A stretch of DNA of 64,000 bases from assembly GCA_963693365.1 (NCBI GenBank), contig CAVNZM010000009.1, positions 9,501,616-9,565,615 of the forward strand, given 5' to 3'. Below, one piece after another: positions 11,019 through 64,000 of this stretch. The notes beneath the pieces were generated by a model. That model was not told the DNA's origin and searched no databases. It was given only the letters and a program-made list of their open reading frames with translations. The position numbers and the translations under genes were made by a program. This DNA is from Amoebidium appalachense. Taxonomy: Eukaryota > Protista > Ichthyosporea. Each line of letters starts with the position of its first letter. The stretch's first letter is position 1.

Positions 11019-11049
<31 letters not shown>

Positions 11050-20918: not shown

Positions 20919-21337
20919 CCCGTCCTACTTCAAGAGTGATTTTCTAATGTTTACTCCTTACTTTATCATAATCATTATTTCATATGTATATTGCCTTTGT
21001 GGGTATGCCCACTTAGGGTTTTTATATAAGGTTTGACCTGTACCATGACTCTACTCTATCTTTCACTGGTTTAAAACCCAGTTAATCAAACCCCGACTAT
21101 ACACGTTATACATATTCGTTGTTTTTGCCCCGGTTCCTTCCCCCCCCCCCCCCTCCCCCCTCCCCCCCCTCCCCCTCCCCCCTTCTCCCCCCCCCTCCCC
21201 CCCCCCCCCCCCCCCCCCCCGGGAAACGTACACACTTTAAAATTTTTTTTTTCTTTTTCGTTTCTGTTCTCAAGTGGGGAGATTTCACTAGTTCAGTGGG
21301 GATATGATAACACAAACTTCAAAGTCTTAAGTGGGGA

Positions 21338-22262
21338 TGTTGTAATACGTAGTATTTACATATGGTAAGATCTTCTCAGTTTGTGTTATGTTTCAGTTCA
21401 TATGCTTAGTGTATATGCCACACTCCTATTATGTAAAGTGTAGCATCGATCTCCGATATGCTTGTATACTTGTAATCGTGTTGTATCGGCTTTAATCGTG
21501 TGTTGTAATATCGATTAGAATATTTATATGTGTGTACACGGATCCACCCACTCAGGGAGAGACGTGTACATGTTCGTGTGTACATAAATATCTCTGGTTA
21601 TAGTTGTGCTATTACTATCTTGTTTGTTGATCTGTGCTCTCTTTTCCTTCCTCTTTCTCCTTCCTTATTTTCTTTTCTTTCTCTCCTTGTCTTCATGTGT
21701 ATAATCGTATTTCTTTTCTACTAATATATGTTAGGTAGATTTGTGTTACTTAATACGTGTTCATTGGACGGTAACACACTTAGGCTACACTTAGAATAGC
21801 ATGTGTGTTTAGACTTCATTAATTCACTTTAGTTTTCATGTGTTGCCGGGCCTTAACCAATCATCAAGGTTAAGTGTGATATGTCTGAGTCTTTGCAGTA
21901 TGTCATAGGTTAGAACTTCCTTGATGATGACACGAGTTGATCTTAACTAGTGTCTGTGTCCTATCGTGTACGTCTCCGCGTACCGGATCTCTCTGAAAGC
22001 AATTGGTCCTTAGTGATTGGTTTCTATTAGAGATAGATCTGATTTCCGACTGGTCGGAAATCATGTATGGATTGGACTTAGAGGAATTTCAGGTATTTAT
22101 TTGAAGATCAGAATAAATTCAGTTCAGTCGTGTCTAAACATTGATGTCTGTTGTGTACACTGCTCCGATCGTTCCGTGTTTTGTTGTTGTGTGTGTCTGT
22201 GGTGTTTTCACACTGCACCACTGTGTCTCTGCTTACATCCCAAATACTTATATAATTTAACA
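21338..22262 (+). repeat. 3' LTR of Copia A
   Basis: TGTTG...TAACA, 925 bp, preceded by the PPT. Confidence 0.95.
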
Positions 22263-24523: not shown

Positions 24524-25192
24524 CCCCATGGAACTCTTTACACTATCGTAAAGAGGTCGTGCAACCACTCCATATGAACTCGCGGTGTGCTTTACGATGG
24601 GTGACAGGTTTACGCCATCGGAGATGGCATTACGAGGGGTAACGATCCCCGGTGGAGATTGCTGATGTCCGTCGTTTATTTATATTCATATCCCACCATA
24701 TATATTGGTTTTCTTCTATATTCGACTTTATATATATGTCGAACTGGGATGGCGACCCAGTATAAATAATTATCTATAGCCTTGCGAGCTGGTTGACTGC
24801 CAGTCTAAACCTAGTCCACGGGATGCACCTTCCCCGTGTCTTAACTGGTTGACAACCAGTCTATAAATCAGTCCACAAGATGTTCATGCCTTGTGTTTAC
24901 CTGGGTGGTCCCCAGTATAAAACATTAGCCACCAACACGTCACACATACACTAGTGTGTCCTCTATATATATATCTCGACGATAACCACCATGATTTATT
25001 GTTCCGAGTCTTCCGAGGCAACCGTCGTTGTGTGCCTCTTCAGTTTTGATTCTCTCCTTCCCACCTCAAGGATCTTCGGTTTGCATCCTCGAGTGGGGAA
25101 ACTTGAATGTGACGGCCCCTCCTGTGTTTGGACCTCATCTACCGTCACATCAACAGACACGAGAACACAAACTTCAACCCCTTGAGTGGGGA

Positions 25193-33587: not shown

Positions 33588-33977
33588 AGTCTCCGTGACA
33601 CGTATGAGGTGGTGCCTCATTTTCCTTCCTACCTCAGCAGAAATGTCTCGCTAGTAATGACAATGCTTATCTGTGTACGCGAAGTCGAAGAAGGAAGGCA
33701 GCGCAGAAAAACGGCTGCGGGCTGCGAAGAAGGAAGGAAAAATCGCCGCCGTCGACGAGGCGAATTTTCCGTGCATACTTGCATATCTTTCCGTCGAATA
33801 AATCCAGTCAAAAGAAAAAAAATTTCCTTCCTTCCTCGCGCAGCCCGCAGCCATTTTTCTTCGCTGCCTTCCTTCTTCGACTTCGCGTACACAGATAAGC
33901 ATTGTCATTACTAGCGAGACATTTCTGCTGAGGTAGGAAGGAAAATGAGGCACCACCTCATACGTGTCACGGAGACT
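33588..33977. mobile_element. Foldback/MITE with long terminal inverted repeats
   Basis: AGTCTCCGTGACACGTATGAGG... is inverted perfectly for ~115 bp and imperfectly beyond. The (T)AGTCTC..GAGACT termini are reminiscent of Academ. Confidence 0.8.
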
Positions 33978-45227: not shown

Positions 45228-46395
45228 CGTAATGGTTCATTTCTTGGTGTTGATCTATCTTTGGGGGGGAGGGGGGGGGGGGGGGGGGGGGGAATGACAT
45301 GGCAGCCGTCGAGGGAGTGTGTGTTGAGGTTATTGAAGGTGGTGGTGGTGCGCGTGTGAGTGTATAACGAGAGCAACCGGAGACGTTAGTGTGTGTGTGC
45401 GCGCACGCGCGTGAGCTTCGACAAGCTCGGGTCAGTGGACCTGATCAAGTCCGAGACAACAAACAACTCCACAAACGTCAAGGATGAAACTCCCCCTGGC
45501 GCGTGTGTAGGGGGGGGGGGGGGGGGAGGGGGGAGGGGGCATATTAGCACGTACCCTCTTAGGTTTCCTCTCACGATCATCATCGCCATCGCCAGAGTCC
45601 TTATTCTGTGCACAGACAATACCCATCACAATACCCATCAGTATGCATCAGGGTTTCACCCACACGTCTGCTAGACTCAGAATTACTAGCCTCCGAACAC
45701 ACTTTTATGACTCACGGCCCGTGCGAACTTAAACGCACAAACAGATAGGACAGACGTACAGAGACATGCACCCACACACACATCCGCACCAACACAGCTC
45801 TGTTCGGATTCCGTGCAGTCAATGTAAACCCCCCCCCCCCCAAAAAAAAAAAAAAAAAAAAATGTGCATTCTTTTCAGGACGTCGAAGTTCAGCCCTCTC
45901 AACTCCTCCCTGCTCCCCGCTCCCTGCTCCCCCCCCCCTCCCAGCCCCCTGCAAACCCTCGAAAACTAAAGCAACCTACCCACCCACCCACCCACTTCCA
46001 TCCTTCCACCGACCTACCCATCCCCATCCCCATCCCACTCCTCCTCCCCCACCTGCCCCTCCACACCCCCCCCCCCCCCCAAACACACACACACACATAC
46101 ACACACACACACACATACCCTTTGCCCCTTTCTCCACCCACCACCCCACCCCAACCCACCTTCCCATCCTCGCTCTGGTTGTCCACACTCAACCTCCTCC
46201 TCTGCTCAAACTCATCAATAACACTCTCCAAATTCAGTCTCCTCTTGTAGTTGTGGTAGAAGTTCTTGCACTGCGATTCCGTCTTGGTTCCAATCTCCTT
46301 GAACATAAGCCCCCAGTTTCGCCCGTGCTGCAAGGTAGAAAAATGTTAATGAAAATGTTAATATCGGATTGACAATAAGGGAGCAAAAGTTCAAT

Positions 46396-46573
46396 ACAGA
46401 CTACGTACCCCGGCAAGGTACTGATATTAGCTGACTGCCGGCCGGCATTCAAACTGAAATGAGGTCCCTCTATTTACTACTAGTTGTGGAAGTAAATGAT
46501 GTGACGTCATTTTAGATTGAAAGCCAGCCGGCAGTCGGCTAATATCAGTAGCCTGCCGGGGTACGTAGTCTGT
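46396..46573. mobile_element. Intronic palindromic MITE
   Basis: ACAGACTACGTACCCCGGCA...TGCCGGGGTACGTAGTCTGT; the whole element folds back imperfectly. Confidence 0.8.
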
Positions 46574-46671
46574 TTAAACCCTAAGTCGTTCAAAAACAAT
46601 TCACACAGCCCTCCTATCCCTCTCCCTCCAAACTCTCTTTTCCCTTAACTGGCTATTTTCCCCCTCTTCCA

Positions 46672-47886
<1,215 letters not shown>

Positions 47887-47916
47887 TGCGCGCGCGCATG
47901 TGTGTGTGTGTGTGTG

Positions 47917-47962
<46 letters not shown>

Positions 47963-47986
47963 CGCGCATGTGTGTGTGTGTGTGTG

Positions 47987-48022
<36 letters not shown>

Positions 48023-48670
48023 GCCGTGTGTGCGTGCGTGTGTGTGCAAGCACGGGTGTGCGGTTATGTGACACTGCACTCCTGTGTTCATTGAGCATAG
48101 CTTGTGCCGTTGTTCAGGCACCTATGATGTGTGTGTGTGTGTGTTTGCGTTGTGTTTGCGGGTCTCTCTCTCTCTCTCCCCCCCCTTCCCCCCCCTCCCC
48201 CCCCCCCCCCCCCCCCTCCCTCCCTCCCTCCCTCTCTCTCTCTCTCTCTCTCTGCGTGTGTGTGCATGCGCACACTAGGTTTTAGAGCACGTAGATGTGT
48301 ACCCTCATGTATGTATTGCACATATGCATGCCCGTGCACGTGCACATGCCTTATACCCACCAGCCTCAGCGGCTCCTTAGCCTGCTCTATCTCCTCGTCC
48401 TGCCACGATGCCGTCTCCTTGATCCCATCACCCATGTTCTCACGTGACAGCGCCCTCTCCCGTGTCTTGGCCGGCTGCATATAAAGAAAAAAAAAAAAAA
48501 CCAGTATTGGTTAACCTATTGATATGTCCCACAATTGTTTTACTTATCACGCGCCACCTTAACAATGTGACGTAATCTTCACACTATCCCGATGTGCTGT
48601 TCCTGGTACTAACAAACTGCGAACGCATGCACGCATACCATAATGTAGCCACCTTTTCTCTTGGAACCGC

Positions 48671-48717
<47 letters not shown>

Positions 48718-48955
48718 AGCACCCCTATCTCCCCTCTTCCCTCCCTCCACTAACCTTCGTTTTTGGCCCACGTGCACTTGTTGCTGGGGTCTCCTGTCTG
48801 CTGGGCGGGGGGGTCTCTTCGTATGCCTCCACTTGGTCCTGAGGGGTAACTATTAGTTAGTTGCAGAACACATCGCCAATTAGCCATAAAGGTTACAACA
48901 GAACCACAACCGTCCTTCATGCCTGAAATTCGAAGCTTGAGACGTCTAAAAGCAA

Positions 48956-48988
<33 letters not shown>

Positions 48989-49204
48989 GTGTGTGCGTGT
49001 GCATGTGCGTGTGCGCGCGTGTGTGTGTGTGTGTGTGTGCGTGCGTGCGTGCACGCGTACGTGTGTGTGAGTGTGCATATGCGTGTGTACGTGCGTGCGT
49101 GCAAGCACATGCCTCATACAAACATAGAAACCTTTAGATAGGAACGTGCAGCACCTAAACTGCACTGATCAGCAGATTGGGGCGGAATGGGAGAACGCCG
49201 GGCG

Positions 49205-49370
49205 GGGGGGGTTTGAATGCGGAACACGGTACGAGGTACGCATACACGATGAGAAGCATGGTGCAAACATTCAAGTATGCAACATCAGCCATGCGCACAG
49301 TATGCATCATAAACAGAGCCCATCCTCAGGGAGGGCCCAAGTCATCAAGTGCGTCTGAGTTTCGACCCCT
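49205..49370 (+). repeat. Dispersed ~170-bp repeat copy (intronic)
   Basis: TTGAATGCGGAACACGG...CAGAGCCCATCCTCAGGGAGGGCCCAA...GAGTTTCGACCCC. Confidence 0.75.
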
Positions 49371-49600
49371 TAGCCCGCGTATATACGACTCTCCAACTCA
49401 GACAGCAGCATCAACTGAACTTGGGAGGGTCAACCCGTCTTGATCAAAGACGAGCAGGGTTGCTTATGCAAGCAAGGTGAGCAAAACGGTGAAGATGTGC
49501 GTGCAAACTAATGCAGTGCAGGGAAAAAATGTGTATGTGCTTACAGATGCACGCCGGGGCGGGGGGGGGGGGGGGGGGGGGGGGGGGCCAGGGAGGGAGG

Positions 49601-49663
<63 letters not shown>

Positions 49664-50446
49664 GGAGGGAGGGAGGAGGGGAGGGGGGGGGGGGGAAGGG
49701 TAAAAAAACCATGGTAGGTTTCCGTTTCTTCGTGCCCAGATTGGCAATGACCATGGCCTTGTACCCGACCTTCTTCTTGGAGGCACAGTAGTAGGCCACA
49801 CAGTCGCTGATGCTCTTGCCCGGTAGGAACACCGCTATACACCCATAGTTCTTCGGGTGCTGAAAAAACCTGGGGGGGGGGGGGGGAGGGGGGGAAGAAA
49901 AAAAAAAAAAAAGGAAGGGAGGGAGGGGGGAAATGGTTAGGGATGGTACGACAGTTTCAACAGGTCGTATAATTGGGAATGAGAGATGAGTGAAGGTCGT
50001 GCATACAGCAGAAGAATAAGGGGTGAAAAGAAGACCGGTAAAGGTACACCCGATACCACCCTCCCACCTACTGCTCTCGTCCTTACTCTATATACAGATA
50101 GATAAATTGGGCAACTGCAAACACATACAAACACAGAGACAGCCGCTTAAACAGCAGTAGCAAAACGTGAATCCACAAAAAGGCTATGAGTGGAGAGGAA
50201 AGGAGGAGAAGGTGAAACAACCGCGTGCTCTTGTGATACAAAAAACACGAACAACAGAAATACACACACACACAAACACAGTTGTGCTTGTCTGTCCATG
50301 GCGAAGCCTCCCTCACCCCCCCCCCCCCCCCCCCCCCCTCACCCCCCCTCTCACCCCCTCCCCACCCCGCCCGGCTCACACACCGCACACACACACACGT
50401 TTTTGTCGGCATCAGCCATGCCCCCGTCCCCTATCTTTATCCCCCA

Positions 50447-50486
<40 letters not shown>

Positions 50487-50641
50487 CCACACACACCCAA
50501 TCCCCACCACACTTCCTTCTTCCCTGTCACTGTGCCCCTCCCCCTCCCTCCCCCTCTTCCCCCCCCCCCCCCCCCCCCACCCCTCACCCACCCGCCCCCC
50601 TTCCCAGTCCCTGCCACCACCACCCACCCATCCCCTCCCCC

Positions 50642-50710
<69 letters not shown>

Positions 50711-52663
50711 ATACTTTTCCGTGAAGATGTGCTGCTCGTGTGGCTCCCAGCAGACCAGGGTCTTGTGGGGGGCAGCCACCTGGGGCAGGTCTGGGATCAG
50801 GCCGTTTGTGTCCACTTAGTGGTAGCGCTCACGTTCAGCACGGTCAAGAATCATACCGGAAACGGGGCTGCTGTGGTCTCGTCTCTGCAGGTAGAGGCGT
50901 CAGAAAAATGAGGTGGGCTGGGGATATGAGCTAATATGTGAGGATCAGAGGAGAGAGAAAGCAACAGGCAGTAACAACGAGGGGGGAGGGGGGGGGGGGG
51001 GGAGCGGGGCTTTGCCTAGGTGTGAGAAAAGCGATGTGAGACGGGGAGGGGGGGGGGAGGGGGGTTTGGTTTTGTTTTCCGGTTTTTTTTTTTTTTTTGT
51101 TTTGTTTGTATGACTGGACGGGCGCCATGTCGCAAATGAATGTTGCCTGAATGCACCTGTGTGCACGGGTGTGTGTGTGTGTGTGTGCATGCCAGTGTGT
51201 GCGCGCGCATGTGTGTGGGGGGGGGTGGTTGCTCGTGCGTATGCATGTGTGTGTGTAGATGTGTGGGTGGAATGTGCGTGAACTTGCATAGACGTGCACA
51301 CACCTTGCTTTCTGCGTCTTGGCCTTATTTGCCTGTGCTTCGGCCTCAAGTTTCTTGGTCCATGTCTCCTGTTTCGGGAGAGAACGTAAGACACCACCAA
51401 TTAAAACTTGTCCTCAGTGATGGCCGTAAGCTACAGAATGACGCAAAACATAAAACCAGTACTGTCCGGCTCGCCCCGGTCCATCAAGAGACACGTGGGG
51501 GAAAAAATTCGGATTCACGACATTCTATCCTGCCCCCCCCCCCCCCCCCCCCCCCACCCCATTAACAGAAAGAATGACAAGACATTCACCAACTCCCCCT
51601 TTCCCCCTCCCCCCCTTCCCCCGGGAAAACCGCCACCGTCAAGCTACACAATAAAAGAAGGGCCTACACCCTGCCACTCTTACACAGCCAGGCACGGTGG
51701 ATATGAACACTAACAGCTCATTGTCGCCCCCCCCCCCCCCCCCCCCCCCCCCCCCCACCACCACCACCACCAACCACAACACACACACACACCAATAAAC
51801 AAAAAAAAAATAAAAAAATACATAATAATAAAAAAAAAACTAAACCGATCCCCGACACTGAAACCACACAAACCTTCCGCCCATCCTTTTCCCTTCCATT
51901 TCTTTCCTGGTGCTTCATCATGCCCGTTACACACCCACACTTACATCCACAAAACAACAATATAGTGCAGTCACACGAACAAACGTAACGACACCAACAC
52001 CTGCCAGCCATGCCCAACCCATGCTTCACCCCCCCCATCAGCATGCACACCCCCACCCGCCAACATACACACGCAAGTGTGCACACACCTAACCCCCCCC
52101 TTCCCCCTCCTGCACACCATACACCCCAGCCCCCACACCGAACCATCCCCCCACCCGTGCGCACACGAACCCACACTAATCTACACACACAACCAAACCA
52201 ACACACTCCCGCGCACACCCACATATCAGACACACACACCCACACCCCCACACACCCATCCGTCCACGCACGCACCCACCCCAACCCACCAAAACACACT
52301 CACACACTCCCCCCCCCCCCCCCCCCCCCCCCCCAAACCCACCAACACACACACCCCTCCCCCCCCCCCCCCTCCCCCCCCCCCCCCCCCCCCCCCCCCC
52401 CAGTCCCACCTCCACACACGAACGCACGCACGCACGTACGCACGCACGCATGCACACACGCACGCAAGCAAGCACGCACGCACGCACGCACGCCAAACGC
52501 ACGCACGCACGCGTGCACGCACGCACGCACACACACACCCACACACCAACAAACCCTTTACCCTCCACACCCATAACCCCCCCCCCCCCCCTCCCCCTAC
52601 ACACACCCATAAACCCCCCCCCCTCCCCCCCCCCCCCAAAAAGAAAACACACACCCACCATAG

Positions 52664-55152
52664 TGGTTGAAGCCCATTCACACCTATTACCACTGCTTAG
52701 GTTGATTCTTGACAACAGCAAGAGGTATGTGCGATATGTTTTTTTTAGTTGTACACGTACAGCATGTTTTATTTTTTAGTTGTACACGTACGGCATGTGG
52801 GTTGGATATGCTGGTATCGGATACACTTTCTTGCTTGTGAGATGGAGTAAACATGAATGTGTAACTGGTCAAGATACTTGCACGCTTGTGGGGCTGGATA
52901 CAGTTTTATAAACATTAACAGTGGATATGCTTGTATTCGGTGGGGGGAGGGGAGGGTGGGGGGGGGGGGGGGGGGGGGGGGGAGGGGGTGATGAAGTGTT
53001 GGACTGTGCGGTGGGACTCTTAATTAGAACACAGAATGAGAAGAAAATCAAGTTTGGGTGATGTTGGTGCCTACCCGTGGATTGGCAGTGGTGATGGTGG
53101 TGGCAGGACAGAGCGGGTGGGGGGGGGGGGGGGGGGGGGGGGGGGGACAGGCGGGGGGAGGGGGGAAGGGGGAGACCCTAAAGGCTTGGGGGGCAGATGA
53201 CCTCTTACCTGTGTGTGTGTATGTTTTGCCACGTGTGCACGTGAATATTTGTGTTTGTATATGTGCATGGATGGATGTTTGCGCGCATGTGTTATGTCTT
53301 GGGGTCTGTGTTCCAATTATGCAAGGAACGTGCACATGTGTTGTGCACAAGCGCATGTGCATGTGTGTGCGTATACAAGTTTGCCTGTGCGTGTCCCTGT
53401 GTGCATGTGTGCAGGGGCCCTCTCGCAAAGGTGTGGACAGGGTGAAGGCAGGCGGGGGGGGGGGGGGGGGGGGGGGGGAGGGAGAGAGGGGAGCTGGCGG
53501 AGGGGAGGGGGGGAGGGGGGTGAGGGGAAAGGAGGGAGAGGGGGCAGGGGAGGGGGGGGGGGGGGGGAGGAGGGGGATAGCGCGGGGGGGGGGGGGGGGG
53601 GGGTATATATGGGAGAGATGAGGTCGGATAGGGACAGGGGATTAGGGAAGAGAGAGAGAGAAAGAGAACGAGAAAGGTAGGGAAAGGAGGGATGAGGTGG
53701 GGAAGGGGGGGGGGGGGGGGGGGAGGAGGGGGGGGGGAGGCACGCGAGAGAGAGAGAGAGAGAAAGGCAAAAAGAGAAGGGCAATTAGGCGAGAGACACG
53801 AAGCAGAAAAAGTTTTTGGAGAAAGGGTGCATCTGGTGTCATTTCATTGCGTCTATATTATAGATTCTTGATAAATAGTAACTGTATCAGTGTTTGCTTC
53901 AAGAAAAAAGGACAACTGTCAAATATGCTCACAATCTAGGCATGCACATTTTCTTACCTTTCTGTTGTATATTTAACCATTTCAACACCTCAAGAAACAC
54001 TCACAATCGATGTATATGCTCACACGCAAGGCACACCACACACTCATTTTCAAAACGTTGTTTTGACACCCACACGTGTGTTCTTTTCCCACAAGATTCT
54101 ACTTTACGGGGAAACGTCTTGCAAAAGCGCTGGAAAAATACGAAACCAATGCAACTTATACGGTGCCCATCAAACATAAGATGGCTGCCAAAGAGGTTGG
54201 TCTGAACGACCTACAAAGCATGGTGGAAGGTGGGTGGTTCATGTTGTGTTCAATTCTTGATTTGTTTTCCTGTCTGTGTGCCCCCCTCCCCCCCCCCCCC
54301 CCTCCTGCCCCTGTCCCCTCCTCCCCCCCCCCCCCCCCCAAAAAAAAAAAAAAAAAAAAAGAAAAACATACACACACCTCCCTCCCATATTCTCTCTCTA
54401 CTTCTTCTTTCTTTTGCTTCTCCCCTCTCCCCCCCCCCCCCCCCCCCCGCCCTCCTCCCCTTCCCCCCCCCCCCCCCCTGGTCCCCTTCCCTGGGAGATG
54501 AGGGAGGTGTGAGTTTGTGGTGTGGGTCGATGGGGGATGGGGTGTGTGTGTGCGGGTGGGTGGGTTTTTTTGGGAGGGGGGGTGGGAGAGGGGGAGGGGG
54601 AGGGAAGGGGGAGGGGGGAGGAGGAGGGATGGGTTAGTAGATGGGCGTGAAAAGATTTAGGGACCCTGGCATTCCGTTCTCTTTTGTAGTTGCTTCCCAC
54701 CCACCCACACATACCCCCACACCCCTCTCTCTTCCTTCCTTATTCCCAACCACTCACCCATTCGTCGTCAAACTAAAAAAAAAGCCATTCTTTCATGTGA
54801 AGGTGTAAGGGGAACAGACTACAATCATAGGCACCACGTACGTGTCTGTTACAATTGTTTTAAATCTATGCATTAGTTTTAATTTCTTACTTGCTCTCCC
54901 AGCCATCCTCTCTCTCCTCCCCCCCCCCCCCCCCCTTGACCATACCTCTCCTATCCACCCCCCCCCCCCCCCTTCCCCCGCCCCTCTCCCCTTTAACAGG
55001 CATACACACACACCATGGCAATAGTTGACACGCTCACGTGCACACACTCTAACACGCGCACACACGCGCGCGCGCACACACACACACACACAGGGAGGGG
55101 GGGGGAGGGGTGAGGAGGTGGGGCGGGGAACACACACCCACACCCACACCCA

Positions 55153-55234
<82 letters not shown>

Positions 55235-55681
55235 CTGGGCCAGCCGCTGTTCCTGTCTGGGCGGCAGCTGGGGCAGCTGGTGCAGATGTGGCTGCGGCAC
55301 GAGGTGCTGCCCACCATCGTGCTGTGCTTCCGAATCGACAAGGCCCCAAATCTGCACGACTGGCGCCACTACTGAGCAATGTAGATTTATTTATCTTCCT
55401 TACCTCCAGAATGGCTGACGAAGGGCGTTGTGCTCAAGGGCCGGTGTATTGGTGTGAATATGCGCACGGGGCGCCTTTGCATTGGTTGTATCGACTTCAT
55501 GGATTTGGGGACCTAAAGTATTATGTAGGTGGTCTCGGGATAATGGTATGCCTAATCGATTCCGTGCAGGCAAAGTTAGACTTGTCTGTTTATGTGGCGT
55601 TGGAGGGAGCCGGGTGATGCTGGAATGATATCTATTGATACGTAGCAGCCCTCGGAAAAGGGGTTTACAACAGCAACACTT
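52664..55681 (+). repeat. ~3.0-kb direct repeat, copy 2
   Basis: Collinear with 27845-30760. Confidence 0.92.
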
Positions 55682-56049
55682 CAATACTAATACTATAGAG
55701 CGCCCCCAAGTACTTAGGAAGAAGTTCGTATTTTGGATATATTTGTATATCCCAGTATTATAACTCACATGCCGTGTCATTTTCATTGTGTATCACGTAA
55801 TATAGGTGTCGCGTCGATGAAGTTTTGAAATTGTATGATCTAGGTTGTAGAAAAATGTGTATCGGTATGCATTCTCTAAGATCGTACGTGGTGCGCCTCC
55901 TCGCGCACTTTCTTCTTAAAAATATCAAGAAACCATATCTGAATTTCTTTAGTCACACTTCGAAAAGGGGTATAAGTTATCTAATTCAGAACTGTCTCCG
56001 TAGGACAAAATTAGCGGATCATGCGCCGAACGCACGCTCACGGACCCAG

Positions 56050-56325
56050 TTGGGATATTCGGGTTGGTTGTAAGGTTTTCCGGGTCGGGCCGAAGGCCCT
56101 AACGGGCCGCAGGCCCGTCGATTGGCTGCTGCTAACCCCGGGGGCCCGGGGGGCCGGGCCGGGCCGGGCCGGGGGTGGCTCGCGGGCCGGGTCGAGCCCC
56201 CGGTCCCCGGCGCCCCGGGCCCCAGGCCTAGCGGCCTAGGGCCTATGGCCCAATCGACGGGCCTGCGGCCCGTTAGGGCCTTCGGCCCGACCCGGAAAAC
56301 CTTACAACCAACCCGAATATCCCAA
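56050..56325. repeat. GC-rich foldback with 76-bp perfect arms and nested hairpins
   Basis: 56050-56125 is the reverse complement of 56250-56325. Confidence 0.92.
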
Positions 56326-56574
56326 TATTGCTTCATTCTGATTGGTTGTCACACCACGGGGTTTCCCGATTGTTCTTCGAATGACATTTGCTATCACTAT
56401 CAGACAGTTCTCCAATTTCAGAACAGAAAACGGTCTCTACCCAGATGGCCAGATAGCCAGGTCAAATTCAGTGTGTGAAAAAAGGTGGATAAAACGGGAT
56501 AAAACGGGGAGCAAAATGATCTGGCCATCTGGCCATGTGGCCATGGAATCTCTATATCTAAAAATAGCTGCCAC

Positions 56575-56862
56575 TGCGCCGGGGCGTGGTTCCGGGAGGC
56601 AGGGGAGCAGGGGAGCTGGGGGGGGCACGTGAGCACTCACTGGCCCTGCGCCGGGGCGTGGTTCCGGGAGGCAGGGGGGCAGGGGAGCAGGGGGGCTGGG
56701 GGGGCTGGGGGGGGCACTCAGTGTGTGGGTGTGCATATGGCCATGGTCACGTATACTAAGAGACTCCACTGGGGGCCTGGTTCCGGGAGGCAGGGGAGCA
56801 GGGGGGGCTGGGGGGGCTGGGGGGCTGGGGAGGCTGGGGAGCAGGGGGGCAGGGGGGGCTGG
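56575..56862 (+). repeat. G-rich repeats (3 units)
   Basis: TGGTTCCGGGAGGCAGGGG..CAGGGGG..CTGGGGGGG at ~56587, 56659 and 56778. Confidence 0.75.
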
Positions 56863-56951
56863 CATGCCACTCACAGCGTGGATAAATGTTGTGTGTGCAT
56901 AGTGTATGTTGGCACCATGCGGCTGTGTGGGTGATAAAGGCAGAAGCCACA

Positions 56952-57271
56952 ACACGTGTGGTGTCTAAACAGCCTATAGGCATGCTCCGTGTGCAGGCAC
57001 CAATTTCTACCCTCTTCTGGTTGGTGCCAAGAGGCAGCGCCCTACACGTGTGGTGTCTAAACAGCCTATAGGCATGCTCCGTGTGCAGGCACCAATTTCT
57101 ACCCTCTTCTGGTTGGTGCCAAGAGGCAGCGCCCTACACGTGTGGTGTCTAAACAGCCTATAGGCATGCTCCGTGTGCAGGCACTAATTTGTTGTGCCTT
57201 CCTTTTTTGGTTAGATCTATACCCGGCCAATGGTTAGCAGCCACGGGTTTGTTTTCATCAAGCTTAGACGT
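56952..57271 (+). repeat. Left arm of an inverted repeat built from 92-bp palindromic units
   Basis: Units start at 56952, 57044 and 57136, then a unique tail to AAGCTTAGACGT; reverse complement of 62792-63170. Confidence 0.93.
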
Positions 57272-57280
57272 GATACTTTG

Positions 57281-57388
57281 CCAATCATCAAGGCCGTTTG
57301 AGTGACAATGACCGTTGATTGGACAGATCTATCCCATTGAGCCTTGGCACCATTGCTGTAAGCTGCTTTGTACCGTGGCATATAAAAG
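57281..57388 (+). promoter_or_regulatory. Putative Pol II promoter (CCAAT boxes plus TATA)
   Basis: CCAAT 57281, ATTGG 57318, TATAAAAG 57381, about 100 bp before ATG 57484. Confidence 0.6.
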
Positions 57389-57483
57389 CAGCACACACGG
57401 TCACATTCACTCATTTAAACACTGACACTCAATAGTAAAAGGCGACACACAACAAACTTGTTTTTCAAACACTCACACGAAAC

Positions 57484-58609
57484 ATGGATTCTTTGAAAGA
57501 GGAGCTTCAACAGCTGCAGAAGCGCTTTGATTTTCTGTACACGGACAATTCGTCTCGCTTAACGGCCCTGCACACCGACCTCACCAGCCTCCGCAGTCAA
57601 GTGACCAATGAGAATGCTGCACGTACCCCCCGACCCCCCCAACCCCAGCCCTCTGATGTAGAGGCACGACTGAGGGCAGCCGAAGAGCAGATCAAGACCC
57701 TGCAGGCCGAGCTTGCCAGCCTGCAACGGGCTGCAGCACCCCACCGGGATGGCCAGGTGGCCTATGAAAACTACATTTTCAGTGGCCCTTGCAAGACTAC
57801 CCCTGTGGCCATGACCACCACTGTGACTGCCCCCCCCCCCTGCCGGCAAGACCACCACTGTGACTGCCCCCACCCCTGCCGCCAAGACCGCCCCTGTGAC
57901 TGCCCCCACCCCTGCCGCCAAGACCGCCCCTGTGACTGCCCCTACCCCTGCCGCCAAGACCACTCCTGCCAAGACCACCCCTACCACCAAGACCACTCCT
58001 GCCAAGACCACCCCTACCACCAAGACCACTCCTGCCAAGACCACCCCTACCACCAAGATCACTCCTGCCAAGACCACCCCTGCCGCTAAGCCCAGGCCCA
58101 AGCACACCAAAACACCTGAGACTTCGTTGCATGACCATACGATGGACCTCGATGCACAGCTAACTAGTGTGAGGGGGGAGCTCCAGAATGCTCGAGAGCG
58201 TGTCAAAGAGGCAAAGGTGGCTGAAGATGAAATAGCGGAGGGCCTGGCCCATGCTGCTGTGTGTGCAGCCCAAAACACCATAAAAAGCATCCGAAGGAAG
58301 ATTCTGCGACGGGAGAAGAACTTGAAGGCATACACAGGTGGTAATGAGTCTGTCTCTTCACCTGCCTCACCCGCCAAACGCGTCCATGATCAATGTGATT
58401 GGGACTCAGATGAAGCATTCAACCCCAAGCGGCTCAAACGACGGGCAAATCAGGTACTCGATGATATGACAGATGACGAATCTGCGTCTGATCGTGAGTC
58501 GGTCTTGTATGACCGCAAACCTGAACCCAAACATAAACAAACTGAAGAAATTCCCCTCATTGATCTTGACCAGGAAGAGTTTGACCAGTATGAGCATGAG
58601 ATGTACTGA
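57484..58609 (+). CDS. Coiled-coil/repeat protein (~374 aa if one extra C at 57830-57840 is removed)
   Basis: N-terminal heptads; 33-bp and 27-bp tandem repeats (TAPTPAAK, KTTPAKTTP); second coiled coil; PKRLKRR; acidic tail. The C11 run replaces the 10-nt CCCCCACCCC of neighbouring units. Confidence 0.75.
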
Positions 58610-59011
58610 TTTGATTGGTCGACTAAGTGGCATTCTCTTTTGATTTGTATTTGAATTGATCGGTCTTGATTTATTTGTTTTCTTTTCTCTTTTAGTTCGT
58701 ATTTGAATATACTCGGTCCAAGTTGATTTGTTCTTTGTAATCTGACTAGACTATCATGTACGTACTTACTCTTTTTCTATACAATCACTTGTGTTCATAT
58801 TAAAGGATTCTGTGTACGTGGACCACGGAAACATACACCATTTTTTGCAGTGCTTCATGCTATAAAATAACCATGAGAGACACAAACAAATACACTAAGT
58901 GTGTACACGTCTACCCATAGGCCCAAGTGTTGACATGTCTGCCCACAGTTCCCTAAGGCTTAAAGCACACATCTGCCTGTATGCCATAAACTTTACTTTC
59001 ACCACAAGACA

Positions 59012-60017
59012 CCCACCTAAGTACACTCTGCACCACCCTAAGTACACTGTGGTGCACAGCCCCACCCTAAGTACACGTCTGCACCACCCTAAGTACACTG
59101 TGGTGCACAGCCCCACCCTAAGTACACTCTGCACCACCCTAAGTACACTGTGGTGCACAGCCCCACCCTAAGTACACGTCTGCACCACCCTAAGTACACG
59201 TCTGCACCACCCTAAGTACACCTCTGCACCACCCTAAGTACACGTCTGCACCACCCTAAGTACACTCTGCACCACCCTAAGTACACTCTGCACCACCCTA
59301 AGTACACGTCTGCACCACCCTAAGTACACGTCTGCACCACCCTAAGTACACGTCTGCACCACCCTAAGTACACCTCTGCACCGCCCTAAGTACACCTCTG
59401 CACCGCCCTAAGTACACCTCTGCACAGCCCTAAGTACACTCTGCACAGCCCCACCCTAAGTACACTCTGCACCACCCTAAGTACACTCTGCACCACCCTA
59501 AGTACACTCTGCACCGCCCTAAGTACACTCTGCACCACCCTAAGTACACTCTGCACAGCCCCACCCTAACTTAGTACACTCTGCACCACCCTAAGTACAC
59601 CTCTGCACCACCCTAAGTACACGTCTGCACCACCCTAAGTACACGTCTGCACCACCCTAAGTACACGTCTGCACCGCACCACCCTAAGTACACGTCTGCA
59701 CCACCCTAAGTACACCTCTGCACCACCCTAAGTACACGTCTGCACCACCCTAAGTACACCTCTGCACAGCCCTAAGTACACCTCTGCACCACCCTAAGTA
59801 CACCTCTGCACAGCCCTAAGTACACTCTGCACAGCCCCACCCTAAGTACACTCTGCACCACCCTAAGTACACTCTGCACAGCCCCACCCTAAGTACACTC
59901 TGCACCACCCTAAGTACACTCTGCACCACCCTAAGTACCTCTACACCATCCTAAGTACACGTCTGCACAGCCCCACCCTTTAAGTACACGTCTGCACAGC
60001 CCCACCCTAAGTACACT
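59012..60017 (+). repeat. ~1-kb minisatellite with constant core CACCCTAAGTACAC and 21-29-bp variant units
   Basis: Core followed by TCTGCAC, GTCTGCAC, CTCTGCAC, TCTGCACAGCCC or TGTGGTGCACAGCCC. Confidence 0.95.
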
Positions 60018-60095
60018 CAATGTTAAGTACATCTGCACACAAGCACTAGAATAGCCTGAGGCTACTCTCTAATAGCTGCCCCTTTTTTCACCGTG

Positions 60096-60743
60096 TCAAG
60101 GCCAGTTGATATCTCCGTCTGAAGACTCGGAAGACGCCCCAGAGCTGCTGGCTTCACTGGCTCGTGCCCTTTTCTGCTGTCCCCGTGTCAAGGTCTTGGA
60201 CTCGGAAGACGAGTACTCCTCAGAAGACGAGTACTCCTCAGGTTCTGACTGCTGTCCCCGTAGCAAGGTCTTGGACAAGGTCTTGAACCAAGCAGGCACT
60301 GGAGGATGGTACTCCTCCTCCGACCCAGAGCTTCTGACTTCCTCTCGTGTCCTCTTCTGCTGTCTTCGTGGTTTCTCCCGTGTCTTGGACCCCTGTGTGA
60401 TGTGCAAACGTGAGCGCTGCAGGGGCTGGGGGGCCAAGTCCACGGGATAGGAGCTGCCATGCTCGCCAGCACGAAGTGCAGGTGCCGCTGCCAGGACAGG
60501 GGGTGCCACGGTCAGCGCTGGGGGTGCCACGGTTGCTGCTGGGGGTGCCACGGTTGCTGCTGGGGGTGCCACGGTTGCTGCTGTAGTGGTGCGCGAAGCC
60601 ATGCGGGTGTGCCTAGCAAGGGCGCGCGCGAAACGGGCCTGGGTGTCCCGCAGGGCCTTTGCATCCTCCTCCAAAGTCTTGAGTCTTGTCTCTATTTTTT
60701 CAGCGCGCCTTTCTAGATCTTTGATGTTATCTTTAGAACTCAT
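60096..60743 (-). CDS. Coiled-coil/repeat protein (215 aa from ATG 60743)
   Basis: MSSKDNIKDLERRAEKIETRLKTLEE heptads, (AATVAPP)n 21-bp repeats, Ser/Glu-rich tail. Upstream TATAAAAG at ~60828-60835 and CCAAT boxes at 60877, 60909 and 60938 (rc). Confidence 0.75.
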   Translation of the reverse strand: MSSKDNIKDLERRAEKIETRLKTLEEDAKALRDTQARFARALARHTRMASRTTTAATVAPPAATVAPPAATVAPPALTVAPPVLAAAPALRAGEHGSSYPVDLAPQPLQRSRLHITQGSKTREKPRRQQKRTREEVRSSGSEEEYHPPVPAWFKTLSKTLLRGQQSEPEEYSSSEEYSSSESKTLTRGQQKRARASEASSSGASSESSDGDINWP

Positions 60744-61430
60744 TTTCGTGACAGTTGGATGTACGTTGTGTGCCAAGGGAGAAGCTAGCTAACATGGAAA
60801 AGGGGTGTGGATTGAAGAGAGTATGGGCTTTTATATGCCGTGCCCGGCTTTGGCATCAGATGCTTTATTGCATTAGATTGGTTGGATATACCCCAGCCGC
60901 GACGCTTGATTGGATCTAGAGATCGCGTGAACATCTGATTGGCTAATTGTCATTTAGGCATCTTGGTGTATCCGATAAGTTGGGGCTCAACCAAATCTGC
61001 TGACTGATTGATGAATTCTGATTGGATCAACAAGAGCATGTTTTGACTTGAGAATTGTCATTTTGACAGATTGGATTGTAATCCCATCTTTGCAACTTGG
61101 CCGTCAGTGTTTGAACACAATGTATTTTGATGTAGCAACTCCTAAAAAAACACGAATATGCTTCCCAACAATTACGAGCATTATTCTGTCTATCAGGGAT
61201 ACAAAAATTGGTCAGGAAAAGTACACAATCACATGGTGCTGACAGCTTGAGCACGATGTCAACTGATAGCGAATCGGTGCACTGCCTGCTGGGAACAACA
61301 TGTCACTTTTTGAGCAGCACTTAGGAAACTCGCGCTCACGTGGATCCAATACTTATACACCAACCAGAAGTGTGCGCACAAAAAGGGGTCCGAGCTGGAT
61401 ACAAATGGCTTGGTGTGTGTGTGTGTGTGT

Positions 61431-62330
61431 TTTATTTTGCATTGTGTAAGGAGCGCTTTTTTTTGTTCACACTGCTTTACTTTGTAAATAATCAGTGGCG
61501 AGTTTTTTTAGTTCACGGTGTGTTTGCGCATCATAGGATTTTGCTTTATTTTGCATTGTGTAAGGAGCGCTTTTTTTTGTTCACACTGCTTTACTTCGTG
61601 TAAATAATCAGTGGCGAGTTTTTTTAGTTCACGGTGTGTTTGCGCATCATAGGATTTTGCTTTATTTTGCATTGTGTAAGGAGCGCTTTTTTTTGTTCAC
61701 ACTGCTTTACTTTGTGTAAATAATCAGTGGCGAGTTTTTTTAGTTCACGGTGTGTTTGCGCATCATAGGATTTTGCTTTATTTTGCATTGTGTAATTTTT
61801 TGTTCACACTGCTTTACTTCGTGTAAATAATCAGTGGCGAGTTTTTTTAGTTCACGGTGTGTTTGCGCATCACAGGATTTTGCTTTATTTTGCATTGTGT
61901 AAGGAGCGCTTTTTTTTGTTCACACTGCTTTACTTCGTGTAAATAATCAGTGGCGAGTTTTTTTAGTTCACGGTGTGTTTGCGCATCATAGGATTTTGCT
62001 TTATTTTGCATTGTGTAATTTTTTGTTCACACTGCTTTACTTCGTGTAAATAATCAGTGGCGAGTTTTTTTAGTTCACGGTGTGTTTGCGCATCATAGGA
62101 TTTTGCTTTATTTTGCATTGTGTAAGGAGCGCTTTTTTTTGTTCACACTGCTTTACTTCGTGTAAATAATCAGTGGCGAGTTTTTTTTTAGTTCACGGTG
62201 TGTTTGCGCATCGTAGGATTTTGCTTTATTTTGCACTGTGTAAGAGGAACGTTTTTTTTGGGTCACACTTTTGCTTCGTAAAAATAAGAGGGACGTTTTT
62301 TTTGGTTCACACTGCTTTGCTTCGTGGATA
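61431..62330 (+). repeat. Tandem array of ~107-117-bp T-rich units (7 plus a degenerate eighth)
   Basis: TTTATTTTGCA(T/C)TGTGTAA recurs at ~61431, 61545, 61661, 61777, 61884, 62000, 62107 and 62224. Confidence 0.95.
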
Positions 62331-62373
62331 GAAAAACTAAACACCTCCTGCCCAACCGGCTGCAAACGACACA

Positions 62374-62733
62374 ATGGACGAAACAGTCACACAGCGCCAA
62401 GATGATGCACACACCGAGCAGCTGCAAGAGACCAACAAGATGCTGAAGGAGGCCAACGAGGGGCTGCACGGGCTGATCCAGCAGCTGAGGGAGTTGAACA
62501 ACGACATGGACAAGGACAACGACGCGCTGCGCACAATGAACAAGTACCAGCGGGAGGTGATCAAGGGCCTGCAAGAGGAGCGCAACAAGGTGTGCGAAGA
62601 GAACAAGAATTTGGTGGTGGAGAACCAAGAGCTGCAGCTGGAAAACGACAAGCTGAAGAAGCAAAAGGACTTTCTACGGGCCTGTCTCATACGTCTGGGC
62701 CAGTCCGCTAAGACTCCGGATGAAACGGATTGA
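62374..62733 (+). CDS. Small all-coiled-coil protein (119 aa)
   Basis: Continuous heptads, GC3-rich codons, ATG to TGA, no intron. Confidence 0.75.
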   Translation: MDETVTQRQDDAHTEQLQETNKMLKEANEGLHGLIQQLRELNNDMDKDNDALRTMNKYQREVIKGLQEERNKVCEENKNLVVENQELQLENDKLKKQKDFLRACLIRLGQSAKTPDETD

Positions 62734-62791
62734 TACAATCATGAGGGATAACACATGCGAGTGATTTCATTCTGTTACTTAGTATGTATTA

Positions 62792-63170
62792 ACGTCTAAG
62801 CTTGATGAAAACAAACCCGTGGCTGCTAACCATTGGCCGGGTATAGATCTAACCAAAAAAGGAAGGCACAACAAATTAGTGCCCTGCACACGGAGCATGC
62901 CTATAGGCTGTTTAGACACCACACGTGTAGGGCACTGCCTCTTGGCACCAACCAGAAGAGGGTAGAAATCAGTGCCCTGCACACAGAGCATGCCTATAGG
63001 CTGTTTAGACACCACACGTGTAGGGCACTGCCTCTTGGCACCAACCATAAGAGGGTAGAAATCAGTGCCCTGCACACAGAGCATGCCTATAGGCTGTTTA
63101 GACACCACACGTGTAGGGCACTGCCTCTTGGCACCAACCAGAAGAGGTAGAAATCAGTGCCTTGCACACG
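62792..63170 (-). repeat. Right arm of the inverted repeat (93-bp units)
   Basis: Reverse complement of 56952-57271 with additional unit sequence. Confidence 0.93.
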
Positions 63171-63242
63171 GGGCAACTGGAAATACATGTTTTAGGGCTC
63201 GTAGCCCACCCAGACAAAATTATTTTCTAGTATAAGATAATA

Positions 63243-64000
63243 ATGATAAACATTGACGAGGCCGCACGTACTTCGTTTCTCAATGTTACGGATGGATTAC
63301 CGCGCTTTGCCCCATCAAGCTCCATTGGTTCCTGGTGTGATAAAGATGCCATTATTGCTTTTTTGAGGACAAAGGTAGCTCGCGTTCTAAATAGCAATGT
63401 GTATGTGGTAAAAATCAACAAGGGGAGACGTACCACTTTTGATTTCCAATCCAGGGAGGCAGTCAACGGGACTCTGTCCGCCATGAGATTCACCTATCCG
63501 AATGGGAAAAAAGACGCTGTTTACTTGGGGAAGGACTATCTATGCGAACCCACAATAACATGGTTCAACGACGCTGTTTTTGACCCGGCTGATCTCAAGT
63601 GCGAGAAGGACGAGAACTACGCCTGCTTCAATACATATGGCGGCATGGCGTTTTCACCTATTGACGGTTTCCGAGTGGACTCACATAAAGTGGGACCCTT
63701 TCTCTGGCACCTACACAACATTATGGCCAACGGTGACCCCATCATGGGCGGGTTTCTTCTTAATTGGATTGCACATATCATCCAGCATCCAGGACAAAAG
63801 CCTGATAGTTGTTGTCTTTTCAAAAGTGTCCAAGGGACGGGAAAAAACATGTTTTGGAACATATTCAGCAAGTTATTGGGTCCCGCCTTGGTTGTAACCG
63901 TGAACAGCAAACACCGATTGGTTGGGAATTTCAATGCACACCTCGCGGATAAGCTGCTTGTGTTGGTCGATGAAGTGACCTTTGGGGGGGAACACACAGT
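63243..64000 (+). CDS. D5/DUF5906-like superfamily 3 helicase, partial (absent from the ORF track because it runs off the window)
   Basis: Own translation: MINIDEAART...FNTYGG...FLWHLHNIMANGD..FLLNWIAHIIQHPGQK...Walker A SVQGTGKN...GNFNAHL..Walker B LLVLVDE; no stop in 252 codons. Confidence 0.9.
   Translation, partial: MINIDEAARTSFLNVTDGLPRFAPSSSIGSWCDKDAIIAFLRTKVARVLNSNVYVVKINKGRRTTFDFQSREAVNGTLSAMRFTYPNGKKDAVYLGKDYLCEPTITWFNDAVFDPADLKCEKDENYACFNTYGGMAFSPIDGFRVDSHKVGPFLWHLHNIMANGDPIMGGFLLNWIAHIIQHPGQKPDSCCLFKSVQGTGKNMFWNIFSKLLGPALVVTVNSKHRLVGNFNAHLADKLLVLVDEVTFGGEHT

Follow-up and report, generated by a model that had tools for sequence, protein, structure and literature searches.

Does the DNA that fills the end of our window, a 64,000-nucleotide stretch of the Amoebidium appalachense genome, belong to the host, or is it one end of a mobile element that replicates itself? 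A sequence-only reading had proposed the latter, placing the end of an undescribed integrated element with a virus-type replication helicase at about 56 kb. We addressed the question with contigs from public DNA sequencing runs, DNA folding, protein family and fold searches, and helicase phylogenies.

A GC-rich foldback begins at the insertion point

In three of four runs (X1, X3 and X13; X14 had no cover there), contigs depart from the flank at exactly 56049. Past this point, the X1 and X13 contigs have identical next 30 letters, the continuation of the empty site. Two other contigs (X3, 1326 nt; X1, 310 nt) have unlike DNA joined exactly at the outer end of the foldback arm. We therefore place the element's left boundary at 56050, the first base of a 276-nt foldback. 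The element breaks a host multi-copy repeat (Table 1); at 55681, the window departs from a paralog inside the window and from one X1 contig.

The two arms of the foldback, at 56050-56125 and 56250-56325, pair perfectly over all 76 nt and enclose an interior of 124 nt that is 85% GC. Folding of 56030-56345 as DNA gave -162.8 kcal/mol (z = -22.6), and none of 100 shuffled sequences was as stable, in agreement with the earlier proposal that a GC foldback starts the element. An exact 31-mer of the hairpin arm had 0 matches in IMG/VR. We also observed unrelated foldback repeats elsewhere in the host, at 33588-33977 and 46396-46573.

We considered whether the hairpin is a lone MITE, and rejected this because the foldback flanks differ, with no duplication around the hairpin alone, and because the DNA after 56325 differs from the empty-site continuation, which does not resume there. 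These observations indicate that the hairpin and the body arrived together. The other junction at the arm end runs into the mirror image of the right interior, in contigs too short to phase a 76-bp arm.

The sequence-only reading had also taken the loss of microsatellites past ~56 kb as a mark of the element. There are indeed only 2 tracts in 56001-64000, as compared with 9-14 per 2 kb in 46001-56000; however, the retroelement-rich 1-26 kb is also poor in them, suggesting that microsatellite loss marks mobile DNA generally. Nested retroelements are abundant in the window, and the 89 frames scanned yielded retroelement domains only. A separate scan gave one weak Myb match. The host DNA has introns of the spliceosomal type, as expected of a eukaryote.

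The body alternates repeat blocks with coiled-coil genes

The 7951 bp of the element seen are 36% coding and 38% repeats. The repeats form five blocks of four families, rather than the four distinct blocks proposed earlier, since one family accounts for both the 92-bp and the 93-bp block, in opposite orientations: over 323 bp, the left arm matches the reverse strand of 62792-63114 at 96% identity, giving an internal inverted repeat of ~320 bp. The palindromic character attributed to the blocks applies to this 92/93-bp family only, with 10- and 8-bp palindromes in the 92-bp units of the left arm; the 21/22-bp and 107/116-bp arrays have no internal palindromes of at least 8 bp. The AT-rich stretch directly upstream of the helicase is 68% AT. 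An Rfam scan of 55000-64000 gave no match.

Table 1. Features of the left end of the element and its flank (window coordinates)
Feature	Position	Strand	Remarks
Host multi-copy repeat broken by the element; left flank, outside the element	55682-56049	.	Piece covered by contigs from X1, X3 and X13
Terminal foldback, left end of the element	56050-56325	.	Perfect 76-bp arms, imperfect interior
Subterminal region	56326-56567	.	Some copies start at 56327-56335 after unlike upstream DNA
G-rich short repeats, 73% GC	56568-56870	.	8-9-nt units inside longer duplicated blocks
Internal inverted repeat, left arm	56952-57271	+	~2.6 x 92-bp units plus a 92-bp CCAAT-bearing segment
TATA box common to ORF1 and ORF2	57377-57389	+	Upstream of ORF1
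ORF1, likely one gene frameshifted in this copy	57484-58609	+	No Pfam or PHROGs family at cut-off
Array of ~43 21/22-bp units	59010-60018	.	Between converging ORF1 and ORF2
ORF2, 215 aa	60096-60743	-	N-terminal coiled coil, 7-aa repeats, basic patch, Ser/acidic tail
TATA box of ORF2	60827-60839		Upstream of ORF2, with three CCAAT boxes
Array of ~eight 107/116-bp AT-rich units, 36% GC	61428-62310	.	
ORF3, 119-aa coiled-coil protein	62374-62733	+	
Internal inverted repeat, right arm	62792-63175	-	~3.3 x 93-bp units, then AT-rich stretch before the helicase
NrS-1/DUF5906-type SF3 helicase, first 252 aa	63243-64000	+	Truncated by the window end

The ORFs at 57484 and 58142, previously read as separate, are most likely one gene broken by a frameshift at the C run 57831-57840, because the repeat tract is open in one frame only, that of the 58142 ORF. 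We discarded the Cys/His-rich tail of the 57484 ORF, since only the T/P/A/K frame of the tract stays open as far as 58609, and an antisense ORF (58290-57559) that mirrors the ORF1 repeat tract and had no match. The restored ORF1 encodes, in order, a coiled coil, a T/P/A/K-rich repeat tract (35% T, 23% P, 19% A, 15% K), a second coiled coil, a basic patch and an acidic tail (23 D/E among 74 residues). In ORF3, GC rises from 0.23 at second codon positions to 0.79 at third positions. Coiled coils are present in all three short ORFs, as had been noted, and family matches, mainly to coiled-coil families, were all below cut-off; none of the three resembled a virion protein by Pfam or PHROGs.

Promoters with CCAAT and TATA boxes had been proposed for two of the genes. 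One 13-mer TATA box occurs exactly twice in the 64-kb window, before ORF1 and before ORF2 (0.05 occurrences expected; 0 of 100 shuffles reached 2). CCAAT boxes are present upstream of both genes; however, their overall count (13 per 4 kb) is no higher than in the window's retroelements.

The helicase belongs to an unnamed, primase-less clade

The truncated gene at the window's end encodes, as proposed, a D5/DUF5906-type SF3 helicase, with a DUF5906 match above cut-off (E 9e-9) and Walker A and B motifs. There is an in-frame stop just upstream of 63231, and the protein's start aligns with those of relatives 460-503 aa long (13 of 18 relatives), leaving no room for an HUH domain in the window helicase. 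We detected no primase domain in the part of the helicase within the window, and no primase family in any of nine clade members scanned.

In trees whose rows include no curated PLV reference set, the helicase falls in a well-supported, unnamed clade of 19 rows (SH-aLRT 100), set apart from all 31 other rows of one tree and from all loci among the 115 rows of another. No virus, metagenome (IMG/VR, JGI) or prokaryote locus placed in the trees lies inside the clade, and the helicase stood apart from every viral locus that the trees included, whether PLV-like, phage or other. Two clade members lie on one 183-kb NCBI contig. Word-pattern scans, which can miss members, gave 4, 34, 0 and 9 IMG/VR protein loci (all ≤36% identical), JGI metagenome contigs of which the best 80 of 197 relatives were all ≤37% identical, and five loci in GTDB genomes (24-33% identical), so that a bacterial contaminant is not indicated. 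The ESM Atlas returned generic DUF5906 clusters only, with nothing interpretable for residues 1-150. A literature search, with most subscription papers and bioRxiv supplements outside its reach, found no description of the element or the helicase clade.

We used a relative 58% identical to the window helicase (P0001) for remote comparisons. Its best sequence match was the C-terminal region of the phage NrS-1 primase-polymerase-helicase (E 4e-16), as was its fold match (E 2e-18 over ~450 columns; PDB 6k9c/6k9e/6lrb), which scored well above D5/E5 and C962R. The available text of PMC7102993 describes this NrS-1 region as a hexameric SF3-like helicase ring.

Two of the 18 relatives (P0010 and P0181) carry an N-terminal domain for which fold alone revealed an HUH/Rep-like structure: it had no Pfam or PDB sequence match, and a word search returned only itself. 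HUH Rep/origin-binding folds occupied all top 10 VIA rows (Z 8.7-10.2), with SV40 large T and papillomavirus E1 origin-binding domains among the top matches (Z 9.5, 9.1 and 8.7), and the top Foldseek match was TYLCV Rep (E 3e-3). Two sequences made up the alignment behind the model; of the five models built, one reached pLDDT 83.8, and the rest fell at 44-64. Read from the alignment, the position expected for the catalytic Tyr appears to hold Trp, pointing to origin binding rather than nicking. The HUH fold in these two relatives ties the clade to Rep-type replication modules.

The element family is multi-copy and includes deletion derivatives

The element family is multi-copy. We rejected contig depth as a measure of copy number, and report it as depth only: in X10, 23-55 for the body, 12 for the helicase and 0-0.55 for host bins across 52001-56000; in X1, among listed contigs, 6583-12512, 1905 and 40-315 for body, helicase and host, respectively. 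Helicase contigs differ from the window at 0-4 positions in 659-855 nt, and most listed body contigs of X7 and X10 are ~1-3% divergent, plus gaps. The difference is consistent with a young subfamily that carries the helicase and is outnumbered by derivatives.

Among the best-supported contigs shown, hairpin-less copies have loose ends at 56328 (two contigs each in X10 and X14) and, in X13, at 56327 and 56335 (one contig each). Helicase-less copies depart at 63094 in X7 and X10 and at 62908 in X3, into the same unlike letters. Helicase contigs in X7 and X10 begin inside the last 93-bp unit (30 letters), and one X10 contig extends 647 letters beyond 64000. None of the contig pieces shown spans the hairpin-body junction or the array-helicase junction with 31 letters on each side. 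Copies without hairpin and copies without helicase go part of the way towards the case that would refute the sequence-only reading, in which the parts occur independently and are never linked. They look more like members derived from a single family than like unconnected parts.

Discussion

The boundary at the hairpin and the multi-copy contigs support the earlier view that an integrated element ends here and that its replication helicase is of virus type, and our best reading is an integrated, virus-derived linear replicon. The fuller form of this reading, to which we give a probability of about 0.5, is the left end of a multi-copy mobile element, inserted at 56049/56050, that likely replicates as a linear molecule: its foldback would prime synthesis, and its SF3 helicase, which has no primase, would open the template for a polymerase of the host. 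We infer that the foldback is a self-priming hairpin: a freed copy would fold its end back to provide a 3'-OH, removing the need for a primase or a protein-primed polymerase. The precedent is the hairpin-priming model for endogenous viruses with non-pPolB genes, as given in the available text of 10.64898/2026.07.28.741278. Copies that lack a helicase gene may be served by this helicase in trans. Next to the AT-rich stretch, the palindromic 92/93-bp units are putative helicase-loading or enhancer sites, and the 21/22-bp array is a putative protein-binding array. The products of ORF1-3 are predicted to be nuclear proteins that dimerise and act in regulation or in tethering DNA, with host Pol II transcribing their genes. 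No enzyme for resolving the hairpin and inserting the element lies in the window; one is predicted beyond 64000. Several observations argue against this reading: the window helicase itself has no HUH domain, and the domain of the two relatives points to origin binding; hairpin-less copies need no site-specific cut, since slippage from one TTG (56050) to another (56328) is a simple explanation; the host has unrelated foldback repeats too; and the hairpin-body and array-helicase junctions are not spanned by the contig pieces shown.

The main rival, which we consider rather doubtful, is that this is the unusually long, repeat-rich left end of an endogenous Polinton-like virus (PLV) or virophage, with capsid, packaging ATPase and integrase beyond 64000. 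PLVs are gene-dense, at odds with the coding and repeat fractions of the first 7951 bp. The 8 kb seen hold, among their ORFs, no match (Pfam, PHROGs) to the pPolB and RVE integrase of Polintons/Mavericks, to a double-jelly-roll MCP, penton or A32 packaging ATPase, or to any core NCLDV gene, as the sequence-only reading had found for capsid, pPolB and integrase; nor does the helicase have the primase part of the NCLDV D5/C962R type, an AEP primase-helicase fusion among the core genes. Polintons are also marked by TIRs with a 6-bp target duplication; the right part of our element lies beyond 64000. Related primase-fused helicases do occur in PLV-like loci, one of which (L039) has an A32 ATPase and an AEP-DUF5906 protein; another locus (L115) has a weak tyrosine recombinase match. 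The virion-protein searches of the three short ORFs, the length of the foldback and the absence from the clade of those IMG/VR and JGI loci that the trees included argue against a PLV; the terminal palindromes of the PLVs and virophages described next argue for one. As far as the available text of PMC11071308 goes, the usual non-pPolB replicase of PLVs and virophages is an S3H fused to AEP or PolA, a hallmark that the window helicase lacks; stand-alone S3H genes do occur now and then in cryptophyte PLVs, in a minority of PLVs (PMC12220804, available text), so the missing fusion is compatible with membership.

The closest likeness is to endogenous PLVs and virophages of Halocafeteria seosinensis, described in the available text of 10.64898/2026.07.28.741278. 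These too are integrated and multi-copy, and in PLV subtype 4 as well as virophage subtypes 1, 2, 5 and 6 they terminate in a palindrome; their replication genes are non-pPolB and often lie near one end, and hairpin priming has been proposed for them. They differ in having capsid modules, TIRs with target duplications, and fused primase-helicase or PolA-S3H proteins, and the only palindrome whose length is given there, that of subtype 5, is 52 nt; by contrast, our element has a 276-nt foldback, a primase-less helicase, sparse coding and no virion gene in 8 kb. Terminal palindromes with non-pPolB replication genes were thus reported before, and our element may not be undescribed in kind.

Parvovirus rolling-hairpin replicons likewise have a GC-rich terminal foldback at the first base and an SF3 helicase, and a hairpin is present at the terminus here. 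Parvoviral terminal hairpins occur as flip and flop isomers. Our element differs in its NrS-1/D5-lineage helicase, with a Pfam assignment of DUF5906 and to no parvoviral family, in lacking the HUH nickase that NS1 carries on the same chain, and in exceeding 8 kb with tandem arrays and no capsid among the ORFs seen. Papillomavirus E1, SV40 large T and CRESS Rep also join an HUH-fold domain to an SF3 helicase, and by fold the two clade relatives have the same two-part layout, but with an NrS-1-type helicase.

This layout bears on an unlikely second rival, an integrated nuclear plasmid or episome that uses host primase at an internal origin of 92/93-bp iterons and AT-rich DNA, in the manner of E1 or large T, with the hairpin serving insertion or resolution rather than priming. 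The fold matches to E1 and large T origin-binding domains, the apparent lack of a catalytic Tyr, and the palindromic units and AT-rich stretch directly upstream of the helicase are consistent with such an episome; however, the window helicase has no such N-terminal domain, and a linear end accounts better than a randomly opened circle for a foldback that coincides exactly with the insertion point here and with a second junction. Less probable still, separate repeats might have nested by chance: a foldback MITE, a non-coding/ORF repeat and a helicase fragment from a giant-virus insertion. The copies lacking hairpin or helicase, the nested retroelements and a 183-kb contig that could be a large virus-like region might suggest this. 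Against it are the single clean boundary at 56049 with no target duplication around the hairpin, the 320-bp inverted repeat tying both body ends, the TATA box common to two genes, and helicase contigs that start within the last 93-bp unit.

Helitrons carry an HUH transposase with an SF1 helicase. Replitrons and Helitrons are, like our element on the preferred reading, eukaryotic DNA transposons, copy-and-paste with Rep-type replication (PMC10288648, available text). They are defined by the HUH transposase, whereas none is visible in this part of the window, and an HUH fold appears in the two helicase relatives only.

It is possible, though we would not yet bet on it, that the family represents a new class: a capsid-less eukaryotic DNA transposon or integrating linear replicon with hairpin ends and a primase-less NrS-1-type helicase, whose clade separately gained an HUH/origin-binding domain in some members, and which maintains non-autonomous copies. 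If so, replication modules of HUH fold and SF3 helicase would have been reached by a third route, in addition to those of parvoviruses and of CRESS/papova viruses; the two relatives with a fused HUH fold suggest that the protein layout of Rep, E1 and large T arose once more. Surveys based on capsids may overlook this clade, which has no name and is absent from the virus collection that we searched. For endogenous dsDNA elements without a protein-primed polymerase, hairpin priming at the start of replication has so far only been proposed (10.64898/2026.07.28.741278, available text). This family is a test case for that proposal: its hairpin terminus is precise, its helicase has no primase, the copies that bear the helicase are nearly identical, and deletion derivatives occur naturally, all in cultured material with public sequencing runs.

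The element begins at a terminal foldback

The left boundary was read from public assembled contigs aligned to the region, which is present in 20 of 22 listed sequencing runs (three organism labels, four studies). The host gene to the left of the element diverges from its in-window paralog at 55681, and positions 55682–56049 are a separate multi-copy repeat. Contigs from runs X1, X3 and X13 track this repeat up to 56049 and then diverge, indicating that the foldback's first base is where the insertion starts, as a sequence-only reading had proposed. After 56049, the X1 and X13 contigs continue with identical letters; run X14 has zero cover at this boundary. None of the contigs listed spans the key junctions with 31 letters on both sides. 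In one X3 contig (1326 nt) and one X1 contig (310 nt), unlike DNA is joined exactly at the arm's outer end. The simplest reading is that the element inserted a second time by an identical end, another internal arrangement being possible.

Re-analysis of 56050–64000 confirmed, with small corrections, the proposed layout of hairpin, repeat blocks, ORFs and helicase. The 276-nt foldback at the element's start has perfect 76-bp arms, an 85% GC interior and a folding energy z of -22.6 relative to shuffled sequences. It is followed by G-rich repeats, a 92-bp array, ORF1, ~43 units of 21/22 bp, ORF2 (opposite strand), ~8 units of 107/116 bp, ORF3, a 93-bp array and the helicase gene, which is truncated by the window end (64000). 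Coding sequence makes up 36% of the 7951 bp, and repeats 38%. The earlier reading recognized the repeat blocks and missed that the 92-bp and 93-bp arrays, with the adjoining CCAAT segment, form a 320-bp inverted repeat (96% identity). ORF1 and ORF2 have in common a 13-mer TATA box (0.05 expected, counting the whole window) with no further copy elsewhere in the 64-kb window. ORF1 is probably a single gene, frameshifted at a C run (57831–57840) in the window copy, because the repeat tract is open solely in the frame that continues into the ORF at 58142.

All listed X1 and X3 contigs over 56255 differ there from the window, though the window's arms are complementary (mirror position 56120); this may reflect a change copied from arm to arm, or an artefact of contig assignment between arms. 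Separately, loose ends at 56266–56301 represent related foldbacks with the inner arm kept and a different outer arm, suggesting sister families.

A repeat family with incomplete copies

In run X10, contig depth, as distinct from copy number, was 23–55 for the body, 12 for the helicase and 0–0.55 for host bins, which were essentially unassembled. In run X1, the corresponding depths were 6583–12512 for listed body contigs, 1905 for the helicase and 40–315 for host contigs. These depths show that the element belongs to a repeat family whose helicase is scarcer than its body; body depth far above host depth in both runs bears out its multi-copy status. Helicase contigs have 0–4 mismatches to the window in 659–855 letters, and most of the body contigs listed for X7 and X10 deviate by ~1–3% plus gaps. 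Depth in X7 was 1488–2028 at 58052–59008, 60559–61234 and 62253–62789, 42–78 at 57292–57887 and 23 at the helicase, a contrast far steeper than in X1 or X10 that could reflect RNA or chromatin enrichment (library type is not on record) and is not counted as evidence.

Contigs of X7 and X10 diverge from the window at 63094, and X3 does so at the equivalent point of a different unit. Past this point the three runs have the same unlike letters, indicating that some copies carry something else at the helicase's place. Among the best-supported loose ends (437 and 65 more lie beyond those listed), at least six contigs (X10, X13, X14) begin at 56327–56335 with unlike upstream DNA, indicating that some copies lack the hairpin. 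Its loss could result from a site-specific cut at the hairpin foot, or from slippage between two TTG triplets.

Neighbouring features

In the window's tyrosine-recombinase unit, a gag-like ORF lies upstream and the direct repeats are split, with no reverse transcriptase match between them; we take the unit to be possibly an RT-less Ngaro/DIRS derivative. The two host foldbacks are unrelated and probably MITEs. No Pfam family was found in the scanned frames of the duplicated host segment. The 223-codon frame has no Pfam match even at E 5, and its motifs resemble those of AP2-type DNA-binding domains.

Features of the window
Feature	Position	Strand	Evidence
Tyrosine-recombinase retroelement-like unit	5511–8809	-	Phage_integrase E 3e-8
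Repeated terminal pieces of this unit	547–1623, 4834–5905, 22864–24528		
Copia LTR retrotransposon	15819–22262		gag, rve, RVT_2 matches
Solo or nested LTR pieces of Copia element	1–546, 12034–13122, 14394–15328		
Host foldback repeat	33588–33977		390 bp, 85%
Host foldback repeat	46396–46573		178 bp, 82%
Duplicated host gene segment	27845–30760 and 52664–55681		88% identical
Intronless frame, 223 codons	37745–38413	+	
Terminal foldback of element	56050–56325		
Helicase gene of element	63243 to beyond 64000	+	

The helicase belongs to an unnamed clade

The window protein matches DUF5906 (E 9e-9) and has Walker A and B motifs, substantiating the proposed SF3 helicase. Among 1.84 billion representatives searched, six proteins of 460–492 aa matched at E <=1e-30, each from its first residues. 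The predicted model of one relative, P0001 (58% identical; pLDDT 88.6), best matches the NrS-1 C-terminal region, ahead of ASFV C962R, SaPI Rep and poxvirus D5/E5. FastTree (115 rows) placed the window protein inside a 23-row group with support 1.0 and no fetched locus. The group had SH-aLRT 100 in a quick-mode IQ-TREE of 50 hand-picked rows (19 group members, 31 others). The window helicase falls outside the parvoviral NS1 and NCLDV D5 types.

Of 18 relatives, 13 are 460–503 aa long, two have an additional N-terminal domain and three are irregular. A primase family was absent from all nine clade members scanned; several rows outside the clade do carry one. Clade members derive from ENA, Logan and JGI assemblies, and two of them, P0013 and P0128, from a single NCBI contig of 183 kb that bears the label Daphnia sinensis, where they lie 34 locus numbers apart.

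Proposed replication

We favour, with a probability of about 0.5, a hairpin-primed linear replicon using a primase-less helicase and host polymerase. Such a helicase, without primase or polymerase, would require a primer and host polymerase; in a freed copy, the foldback at the element's first base would provide the 3'-OH, as terminal foldbacks do in parvoviruses. Copies without the helicase would be mobilised in trans. Judged by anatomy, the palindromic 92/93-bp units beside AT-rich DNA may be helicase-loading sites, and the coiled-coil proteins, which are of low complexity and bear basic patches, may be nuclear regulators or tethers. Hairpin priming is proposed for Halocafeteria elements in 10.64898/2026.07.28.741278.

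The element is similar to endogenous PLVs and virophages that end in palindromes, and its proposed mode of action is that of a hairpin-ended replicon; less probably, it is itself an unusual PLV or virophage end. The usual PLV replicase is S3H fused to AEP or PolA (PMC11071308); the element's helicase lacks this fusion. However, PMC12220804 describes stand-alone S3H genes in some PLVs. Several results count against hairpin priming: no nickase or integrase gene is visible within 56050–64000, no free form or flip/flop isomers were demonstrated from contigs, and the contigs listed leave the key junctions unbridged at 31 letters on both sides. An episome primed internally would leave the terminal foldback without a part in priming, and is unlikely. 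The parts are joined in the window, and the contigs include body copies lacking the hairpin and others lacking the helicase, which look like derivatives of one family; that the element is a chance nest of separate repeats is very improbable.

The element is real, precisely bounded and multi-copy, with an unnamed primase-less helicase clade; no description of either was found in the literature searched. With gene content read as far as 64000, a place for it in a new capsid-less class is possible rather than probable.

A Rep-like fold in two clade members

Two relatives, P0010 and P0181, have a common 120-aa N-terminal domain (36% identical) with no match in any sequence library searched. Its best model had pLDDT 83.8 (other four, 44–64). 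The top ten fold rows were all of Rep/large T/E1 type (Z 8.7–10.2, rmsd 2.4–3.6, 89–108 residues), matching Rep domains of geminivirus, vientovirus, circovirus, nanovirus and smacovirus, SV40 large T and papillomavirus E1; in the same comparison, unrelated ACT-type folds start at Z 8.4 and go downward. TYLCV Rep was likewise the leading Foldseek match, with an E value of just 3e-3. Judged by HUH motifs, one of the two proteins keeps the His-hydrophobic-His site while its counterpart has a changed one, and the presumed catalytic Tyr position is apparently Trp in both, suggesting that the modelled domain may bind the origin without nicking it. The window helicase lacks this domain, so the finding concerns the clade and not directly the window copy. 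No description of a fusion between an HUH/Rep-fold domain and an NrS-1-type SF3 helicase was found in the literature searched, and the one in P0010 and P0181 merits separate study.
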